From NCBI RefSeq assembly GCF_003334255.1, contig NZ_QOWU01000043.1: a stretch of DNA of 46,580 bases. One strand, given 5' to 3'. The DNA comes from Escherichia coli. GTDB taxonomy: Bacteria; Pseudomonadota; Gammaproteobacteria; Enterobacterales; Enterobacteriaceae. Of this stretch, positions 29,503 through 29,935 are shown piece after piece. The notes under the pieces are model-generated. The model was not told where the DNA came from. It saw nothing but the letters and a program-made list of their open reading frames with translations, and made no database searches. Position numbers and translations under genes: made by a program. Numbering within the stretch: the stretch's first letter is position 1; each line of letters starts with the position of its first letter.

Positions 29503-29520
29503 GTTATGTTATAACATAAC
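29503..29520. promoter_or_regulatory. Zur box: 18-bp perfect palindrome GTTATGTTATAACATAAC, 12 nt upstream of rpmE2 start
   Basis: Palindrome read directly; ykgM/rpmE2 is an established Zur-repressed operon. Confidence 0.65.
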
Positions 29521-29531
29521 AGGTAAAAATG

Positions 29532-29795
29532 ATGAAGCCCAATATCCATCCTGAGTATCGTACTGTGGTGTTCCACGACACCAGTGTTGATGAGTACTTT
29601 AAAATCGGCTCGACTATCAAAACAGACCGTGAGATTGAGCTGGATGGCGTAACGTATCCATACGTGACAATTGATGTCTCTTCTAAATCGCACCCGTTCT
29701 ATACAGGGAAGCTGAGAACAGTGGCATCAGAAGGAAATGTTGCACGATTCACCCAACGTTTTGGTCGTTTTGTTAGCACGAAAAAGGGGGCGTGA
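29532..29795 (+). CDS. rpmE2: 50S ribosomal protein L31 type B (zinc-independent paralogue)
   Basis: 87-aa product [18 protein letters not shown]...; L31 fold without the CxxC zinc ribbon; in-frame ATG at 29529 is an alternative start. Confidence 0.9.
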
Positions 29796-29935
29796 TGAAA
29801 GTTCTTAACTCTCTGCGTACCGCAAAAGAACGCCATCCAGACTGTCAGATTGTGAAGCGAAAAGGACGGCTATATGTGATTTGTAAATCTAATCCACGTT
29901 TTAAGGCCGTTCAGGGTCGTAAGAAAAAACGTTGA
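29795..29935 (+). CDS. rpmJ2: 50S ribosomal protein L36 paralogue (zinc-independent)
   Basis: 46-aa [49 protein letters not shown]; start overlaps rpmE2 stop (TGATG). Confidence 0.9.

Follow-up and report, generated by a model that had tools for sequence, protein, structure and literature searches.

Upstream of two small ribosomal protein genes in a 46,580-nt stretch of Escherichia coli DNA, hereafter the window, lies a perfect 18-bp palindrome, and the question raised by this locus is whether the palindrome is an operator for the zinc-dependent repressor Zur and the two genes its target. The first-pass annotation, made from the sequence alone, had answered that it is, judging the locus “not novel but a clean example”. 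We conclude that positions 29503–29935 almost certainly constitute the ykgM-ykgO operon of E. coli together with its Zur operator, an identification that none of the observations contradicts, and the judgement was right, the system being already known in mechanistic and structural detail. A 2003 study by Panina is reportedly among the sources on the K-12 ykgM-ykgO operon and its Zur operator. Rasmussen 2022 (PMC9825181) is a further source named for the K-12 operon.

Identity of the locus

The window is E. coli DNA, 99.97% identical to K-12 MG1655 over two aligned stretches that cover most of its length, and its gene order at the locus is that of K-12: ykgR, ykgM, ykgO, ykgL (on the opposite strand), ecpR and ecpA-E. 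The 1,101 bp around the finding are 99.9% identical to K-12, and over 5,000 complete E. coli genomes have a match to them, with ykgM (type B 50S ribosomal protein L31), ykgO (type B L36) and the convergent ykgL as the annotated genes. The first-pass annotation thus had the gene identities right, but its names, rpmE2 and rpmJ2, belong to the usage of other species; in E. coli the genes are called ykgM and ykgO. The operator and both proteins show no difference from MG1655, and the TGATG junction between the genes, the hairpin downstream of them and the neighbours (ykgR upstream; ykgL and ecpR downstream) are likewise those of K-12. One promoter base differs, G for A at 29494 (−10 hexamer TGTCTT versus TATCTT), together with two 1-nt differences in the length of A-runs in flanking intergenic DNA at 28988 and 30828.

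Strain LR-48 is the sole 100% match over the 1,101 bp. Elsewhere more than 60 sites separate it from the window, which also lacks an IS1 present in LR-48; the window strain is therefore distinct from LR-48. At both A-runs the window is one A shorter than K-12 and LR-48 (A5 versus A6 at 28988; A7 versus A8 at 30828); strain AST215 is also longer than the window at 28988 and has A for G just before the run at 30828. These run-length differences may be assembly errors or slippage.

Several other features of the window and of the genome collection were observed along the way. An intact open reading frame of 1,418 aa on the minus strand (23697–27953) encodes the inverse autotransporter adhesin FdeC; since the K-12 gene is truncated with an adjacent IS3 element, the window strain is the one that keeps the ancestral FdeC state. 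From 45100 to 46580 the window diverges both from K-12, which has intF of prophage CP4-6 there, and from LR-48, which has another integrase; the sequences elsewhere that match this end best contain an IS1 element, a gene for an AraC-family regulator and part of an integrase core. Between ykgJ and yagU, on the minus strand (38498–38697), there is a full-length match to Rfam IS009 (RF02111) at 202 bits, against a gathering score of 117; the same Rfam scan of the whole window gave nothing at the ykgM-ykgO locus. In the E. coli genome collection, 12–13 records classed as plasmids carry the ykgM promoter or operon region, which is unexpected for a chromosomal core locus.

The ribosomal protein genes

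The coding features of the operon are the following.

29521–29524, plus strand: Shine-Dalgarno-like AGGT, 7 nt before the ykgM ATG (read from the sequence; GAGG or AGG stands in the same place in orthologues)
29532–29795, plus strand: ykgM, 87 aa, bL31 type B, no cysteine (NF002462, RefSeq annotation, identity to 6i7v_D7, cysteine replacement)
29795–29935, plus strand: ykgO, 46 aa, bL36 type B (NF002021, identity to 6i7v_C5, ligand changes, conserved gene order)

YkgM scores 122.9 bits on the NCBIfam model for type B L31 (NF002462, cut-off 86) and 59 and 53.7 on the type A L31 equivalog models, under their cut-off of 70. Its residues 1–68 are identical to chain D7 of ribosome entry 6i7v (6i7v_D7), labelled “50S ribosomal protein L31 type B”, and residues 1–45 of YkgO are identical to chain 6i7v_C5 of the same entry, labelled “L36 2”. 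Given this identity to characterised proteins, new protein-database, structure-prediction and metagenome searches were unnecessary. A second in-frame ATG at 29529 would give ykgM 88 codons; only the ATG at 29532 is conserved in other Escherichia.

The sequences of the zinc-binding counterparts, E. coli bL31A and bL36A, were verified against the PDB. In alignment, the four zinc ligands of bL31A (C16, C18, C37 and C40) are replaced in YkgM by T, V, S and S, leaving the protein with no cysteine at all. In YkgO, C11 and H33 of bL36A correspond to H14 and F36, and C14 and C27 are kept as C17 and C30. The earlier description of the products as zinc-free is therefore exact for YkgM, all four cysteines of which are replaced; YkgO keeps cysteine at two of the four ligand positions, and that it too is zinc-free is something we infer from the alignment.

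To place these features in a wider context, a scan with YkgM, taking one genome per species, yielded 80 orthologous loci from about 26 genera, mostly Enterobacterales with the addition of Vibrio and Pseudoalteromonas. Cysteine is absent from 78 of the 80 YkgM orthologues, and all 79 YkgO orthologues have exactly two. One record titled Chryseobacterium sp. 18061 (CACSKA010000001.1) carries an Enterobacteriaceae-type ykgMO locus that is nearly the same as that of Citrobacter sp. 18056 from the same project; the record is probably mislabelled or contaminated, judging from this likeness.

The TGA stop codon of ykgM (29793–29795) and the ATG of ykgO (29795–29797) have one base in common, giving TGATG at 29793–29797 and leaving no space for a separate ribosome-binding site between the genes. 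This overlap and the score of YkgO on the type B L36 model (NF002021, 91 bits against a cut-off of 70) bear out the reading of ykgO as an L36 paralogue overlapping ykgM. Of the 80 orthologous loci, 79 have L36B as the next gene downstream, and in 71 of these 79 pairs the spacing is between −4 and +5 nt, an adjacency suggesting that ykgM and ykgO form a translationally coupled two-gene operon.

The palindrome as a Zur operator

29503–29520, strandless: Zur operator, perfect 18-bp palindrome GTTATGTTATAACATAAC, dyad between 29511 and 29512 (motif fit; published binding in MG1655)

The claim that the 18-mer is perfectly palindromic held on a direct check: GTTATGTTATAACATAAC, situated 11 nt before ykgM, reads the same on both strands. 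(A repeat finder did not report the palindrome itself, the arms being adjacent.) No perfect palindrome in the 46,580 bases is longer, the runner-up measuring 14 bp, and no second match to it exists in the window even at three mismatches. Perfect palindromes of at least 18 bp nevertheless appeared in 18% of 200 dinucleotide-preserving shuffles of the window. The length of the palindrome is not significant by itself, and its significance rests instead on motif match, position and conservation.

The standard for the motif match is the crystal structure of Zur on DNA (Gilston 2014, PMC4219657), which has two dimers on overlapping sites. That study describes the dimer element as RNNNYxxxRNNNY, the 18-bp site as the skeleton RNNNYRNNRYNNYRNNNY, and a longer pattern, TGWNAYRWTATAWYRTNWCA, with a central TATA that its authors regard as specific to Zur and absent from the Fur box. 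At 29503–29520 all eight specified positions of the skeleton are satisfied, two overlapping dimer elements are present (29503–29515 and 29508–29520), and the central TATA occupies 29510–29513. The published 20-mer matches at 19 of its 20 positions (29502–29521), the single mismatch lying in the flank, with G at 29502 where T is the rule. This is the sole match in the window at two or fewer mismatches, where 0.12 would be expected; the degenerate purine/pyrimidine skeleton taken alone matches the window 164 times. Older, odd-centred Zur consensus sequences of 23 and 19 bp match best in two registers, one centred on 29509 and the other 5 bp away on 29514, which is what two overlapping dimer sites would predict. 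Comparison with the published Zur consensus, which the first-pass annotation had proposed as a check, thus came out in its favour.

Regulation through this operator is a matter of published record. The MG1655 sequence is the same as that of the window from 29495 onwards, operator included, so that the experiments proposed in the first-pass annotation have already been done on the exact operator. Among the four operators in MG1655, that of L31p is bound most tightly (apparent Kd 0.025e-18 M^2) and ranks first for palindromic symmetry, and its repression is 560-fold (PMC4219657, Table 3). A ykgM-lacZ reporter was silent in the wild type, rose almost 1000-fold with TPEN and was very highly expressed with zur::kan (Aseev 2020, PMC7297116). 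Both studies used K-12, the former MG1655 and the latter a reporter amplified from E. coli genomic DNA. YkgM has also been reported to repress rpmE expression through the rpmE 5' UTR, and to carry a slight cost in rich medium or at low temperature.

For Zur binding, zinc dependence and ribosome incorporation we thus draw on the literature for MG1655-identical sequences; sequence, motif fit, family, gene order and conservation come from the present analysis. The family scores, the annotation in more than 5,000 genomes and the MG1655-identical operator together substantiate the match to the established Zur-regulated ykgM-ykgO operon, and the published EMSA, repression and TPEN results (PMC4219657, PMC7297116) do the same for its regulation under zinc limitation.

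Predicted promoter and terminator

29470–29475, plus strand: putative −35 hexamer TTGAAA of the ykgM promoter (best σ70 pair in the window and in K-12; conserved across Escherichia)
29493–29498, plus strand: putative −10 hexamer, TGTCTT in the window strain and TATCTT in K-12, ending 4 nt before the palindrome (cross-species conservation)
29984–30026, plus strand: probable operon terminator, a 14-bp perfect stem (29986–29999 and 30007–30020) with a 7-nt loop and TTTTCC (z-score of the region −4.95)

The searchable literature holds neither a mapped E. coli ykgM transcription start nor a printed literal 18-mer, and the hexamers and start site were consequently derived from conservation. In most of the 80 loci the best σ70 candidate is TTGnnn, exactly 17 nt, and TAnnnT, ending 3–4 nt before the 18-mer; every orthologue with such a promoter has A at −10 position 2 and T at position 6. 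Transcription is predicted to start at about 29505, inside the left arm of the palindrome, which would place the operator at about −2 to +16; the reported footprint, some 30 bp long, would extend as far as the −10 element. The palindrome had been described as overlapping the likely promoter. It does cover the predicted start and abut the putative −10 element, but it is clear of the −35 and −10 hexamers, beginning 4 nt downstream of the latter.

A consensus scan for promoters and terminators over 29000–30400 called neither a ykgM promoter nor a ykgO terminator, the former because of the variant −10 under the scan rule and the latter because of an A+T-rich stem and short T run. The promoter was recovered from cross-species conservation and the hairpin from repeat finding and folding. 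The hairpin at 29984–30026 is the probable terminator of the ykgMO operon; it has four T's only and sits inside the 3' end of the convergent ykgL open reading frame. The latter (29970–30197, minus strand, 75 aa) belongs to no NCBIfam family, converges on ykgO and is annotated as frameshifted in AST215.

A rare variant in the putative −10 hexamer of the window strain

The G at 29494, where K-12 has A, is the only substitution in the 1,101 bp, and it falls on position 2 of the putative −10 hexamer. All other Escherichia lineages examined, including cryptic-clade E. coli and E. albertii, have A at this position, and in a box-anchored alignment of 80 distinct sequences the window itself is the one with G in that column. 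The K-12 version of the promoter segment is found at 99% identity or more in 2,985 of 5,062 complete E. coli records, and the exact 71-nt segment of the window in two records among 4,824 complete E. coli genomes with a match. The carriers of the G allele among about 5,060 complete records are LR-48 and AST215, representing two backgrounds: the LR-48 locus is K-12-like, and that of AST215 is 95.7% identical with different upstream gene content. Since both share the exact allele, it is real and not the error of a single assembly, and it exists on at least two backgrounds. The “clean example” of the first-pass annotation is accordingly a known operon, as claimed, but one that carries in the window strain a rare A-to-G change at the most critical position of the putative −10 hexamer.

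Recurrent mutation could explain the presence of G on two backgrounds, and so could a short recombination tract. The window is identical to AST215 over 193 bp (29467–29659), comprising the promoter, the operator and the start of ykgM, in surroundings of 3.5 kb that are about 4% divergent. Purifying selection could account for this identity, as could a short recombination tract that includes the G allele.

In σ70 promoters no base of the −10 element matters more than the −11 adenine, and from its loss weaker induction is expected in the window strain; maximal induction may be lower there than in K-12. The substitution lies 9 nt outside the 18-mer, and Zur binding should be unaffected. These considerations lead to an alternative view of the locus, in which the window strain has a promoter-impaired operon, ykgMO being either weakly inducible or served by a secondary promoter, for example an extended −10-like element within the box (TGnTATAAC, 29507–29515). 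That the sole K-12 difference in 1,101 bp should hit a −10 position at which every orthologue with this promoter has A, in an allele confined to so few complete records and at a base of such general importance, speaks for impairment. The −10 assignment is however derived from conservation and not mapped, both coding sequences are intact and K-12-identical with no sign of decay, and the allele is tolerated in three distinct genomes, one with a locus about 4% divergent, and is thus not an obvious dead end. On balance we give an impaired promoter slightly less than an even chance.

Conservation of the operator and alternative readings

The identification of the 18-mer as the Zur operator of ykgM-ykgO is carried further by its conservation. 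A box with three or fewer mismatches to the 20-mer is present in all 80 orthologous loci, 9–29 nt (mostly 11–13) before the start codon, and the DNA around and further upstream of it is largely unconserved. The match to the 20-mer, the location 11 nt before an L31-type-B gene and the presence of the box in 80 of 80 loci confirm that the palindrome is non-random. The full purine/pyrimidine skeleton is kept in 69 of the 80, and at skeleton positions 5, 6, 13 and 14 all changes are transitions that keep the class. Core positions 4 and 8–10 never vary, and only one of the 80 loci departs from A at position 11; constraint is looser in the outer right arm (positions 15–18), where positions 16–18 vary freely. 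A perfect 18-mer occurs in only 5 of the 80 orthologues, indicating that perfection of the palindrome, a feature of Escherichia and a few others, is not required.

Three other readings of the palindrome were weighed. In the first, it would act in RNA, as a 5'-UTR hairpin controlling translation or stability of the ykgM mRNA; as RNA, 29503–29520 does fold into a 7-bp hairpin, and the 58-nt leader region folds at −9.7 kcal/mol with a z-score of −2.4. The predicted start at about 29505 lies inside the left arm, however, and the full hairpin would not be transcribed. The orthologues moreover contain no compensatory changes, on which ground the hairpin was rejected: position 15 has A for T in 29 of 80 loci, and its partner, position 4, is A in all 80. 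The conserved property is the purine/pyrimidine class, in keeping with recognition of DNA by a protein but not with base pairing. A role at the RNA level is therefore very improbable.

A site for Fur, the iron regulator, or for another member of its family has still less in its favour. Fur is a paralogue of Zur and likewise binds A+T-rich inverted repeats, but the best match to the 19-bp Fur consensus GATAATGATAATCATTATC within 29470–29550 has 12 of 19 positions and lies off the palindrome, on which basis a Fur box was rejected; the reportedly Zur-specific TATA at 29510–29513 and the 560-fold derepression caused by zur deletion alone (PMC4219657) also tell against it, and its probability is negligible. 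The best Fur-like site in the window is elsewhere, a 16-of-19 match to the consensus at 7159–7177 (ATTAATGATAATCACTATC, minus strand), intergenic and upstream of pdeL.

That the palindrome arose by chance in A+T-rich intergenic DNA and regulates nothing, as its frequency in shuffled sequence and the many matches to the degenerate skeleton might suggest, is hardly credible in view of the specific 20-mer match and the published binding and repression of the identical sequence (PMC4219657), and is refuted by the conservation of the box near the start codon in all 80 loci.

Proposed mechanism and related systems

For the 18-mer as a Zur operator, these data and the published work fit the following scheme. 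When zinc is sufficient, two zinc-loaded Zur dimers would bind the 18-bp palindrome cooperatively, on opposite faces, each reading one of the overlapping RNNNYxxxRNNNY elements (29503–29515 or 29508–29520). Because only 4 nt separate the operator from the −10 hexamer and the predicted start at about 29505 falls inside the operator, the bound tetramer, with a footprint of about 30 bp, would exclude RNA polymerase or block open-complex formation, leaving the operon silent. As zinc falls, Zur would lose its zinc and leave the DNA, and the σ70 promoter (TTGAAA, 17 nt, TATCTT in K-12) would fire, producing a single short mRNA from which ykgM would be translated by way of the AGG Shine-Dalgarno sequence and ykgO by coupling at TGATG. 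The cysteine-less bL31B and the ligand-depleted bL36B would then replace the zinc-binding bL31A and bL36A in the ribosome, such that translation could be kept up as zinc demand drops.

The E. coli operators of znuA/znuCB, zinT and pliG, all outside the window, have the same RNNNYRNNRYNNYRNNNY skeleton and central TATA (PMC4219657). Two-dimer binding is cooperative at the E. coli Zur operators, pliG excepted, but the other operators are less palindromic than that of ykgM, which has the top symmetry and tightest apparent Kd; repression of znuC and pliG is 7- to 8-fold as against 560-fold for ykgM (PMC4219657).

A close parallel in another species is ykgM-rpmJ2 of Yersinia pestis (PMC2706843), where the two genes are arranged as in the window and again have a Zur box shortly before the start codon; the Y. 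pestis box overlaps the core promoter. Direct repression by Zur was demonstrated there by EMSA, DNase footprinting, primer extension and a lacZ fusion, and the Zur site lies over the −10 element (PMC2706843). Unlike the perfect, even-centred 18-mer of E. coli, the Zur box of Y. pestis, GATGTTACATTATAACATA, is an imperfect repeat of the odd-centred 9-1-9 type.

Also related is the switch between C+ and C− ribosomal proteins described by Makarova 2001 and Akanuma 2006, as these are cited in PMC2706843 and PMC7297116. As far as those citations describe it, ytiA of Bacillus subtilis, an rpmE paralogue, likewise encodes a zinc-independent paralogue of a zinc-ribbon ribosomal protein that is repressed by Zur and swapped into ribosomes when zinc is limiting, but it differs in having a 9-1-9 operator consensus, in being a lone gene rather than an L31B-L36B pair, and in the set of duplicated proteins to which it belongs.

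Significance

The ykgMO genes and their Zur box represent a textbook zinc-starvation response, and nothing in them is new as a finding. The locus has value as a positive control, in that a reader without tools correctly named the operator, the target genes and their function. Two observations go slightly beyond the searchable literature: first, from the 80-species comparison, the restriction of operator substitutions at the skeleton to class-preserving transitions, together with the fixed distance of 3–4 nt between operator and conserved −10 element; second, the rare change at the key −10 adenine in the window strain.

The last of these has possible consequences for the biology of the switch. 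It is conceivable, though we consider it rather doubtful, that the G at 29494 is a natural promoter-down allele that blunts the zinc-starvation switch, that it arose or spread more than once, and that it hints at occasional selection for lower ykgMO output. Were this so, lower output might have been selected because, for example, YkgM represses rpmE and lowers translational fidelity. If the G does lower induction, the window strain would carry a natural variant in the commitment of E. coli to zinc-free ribosomes.
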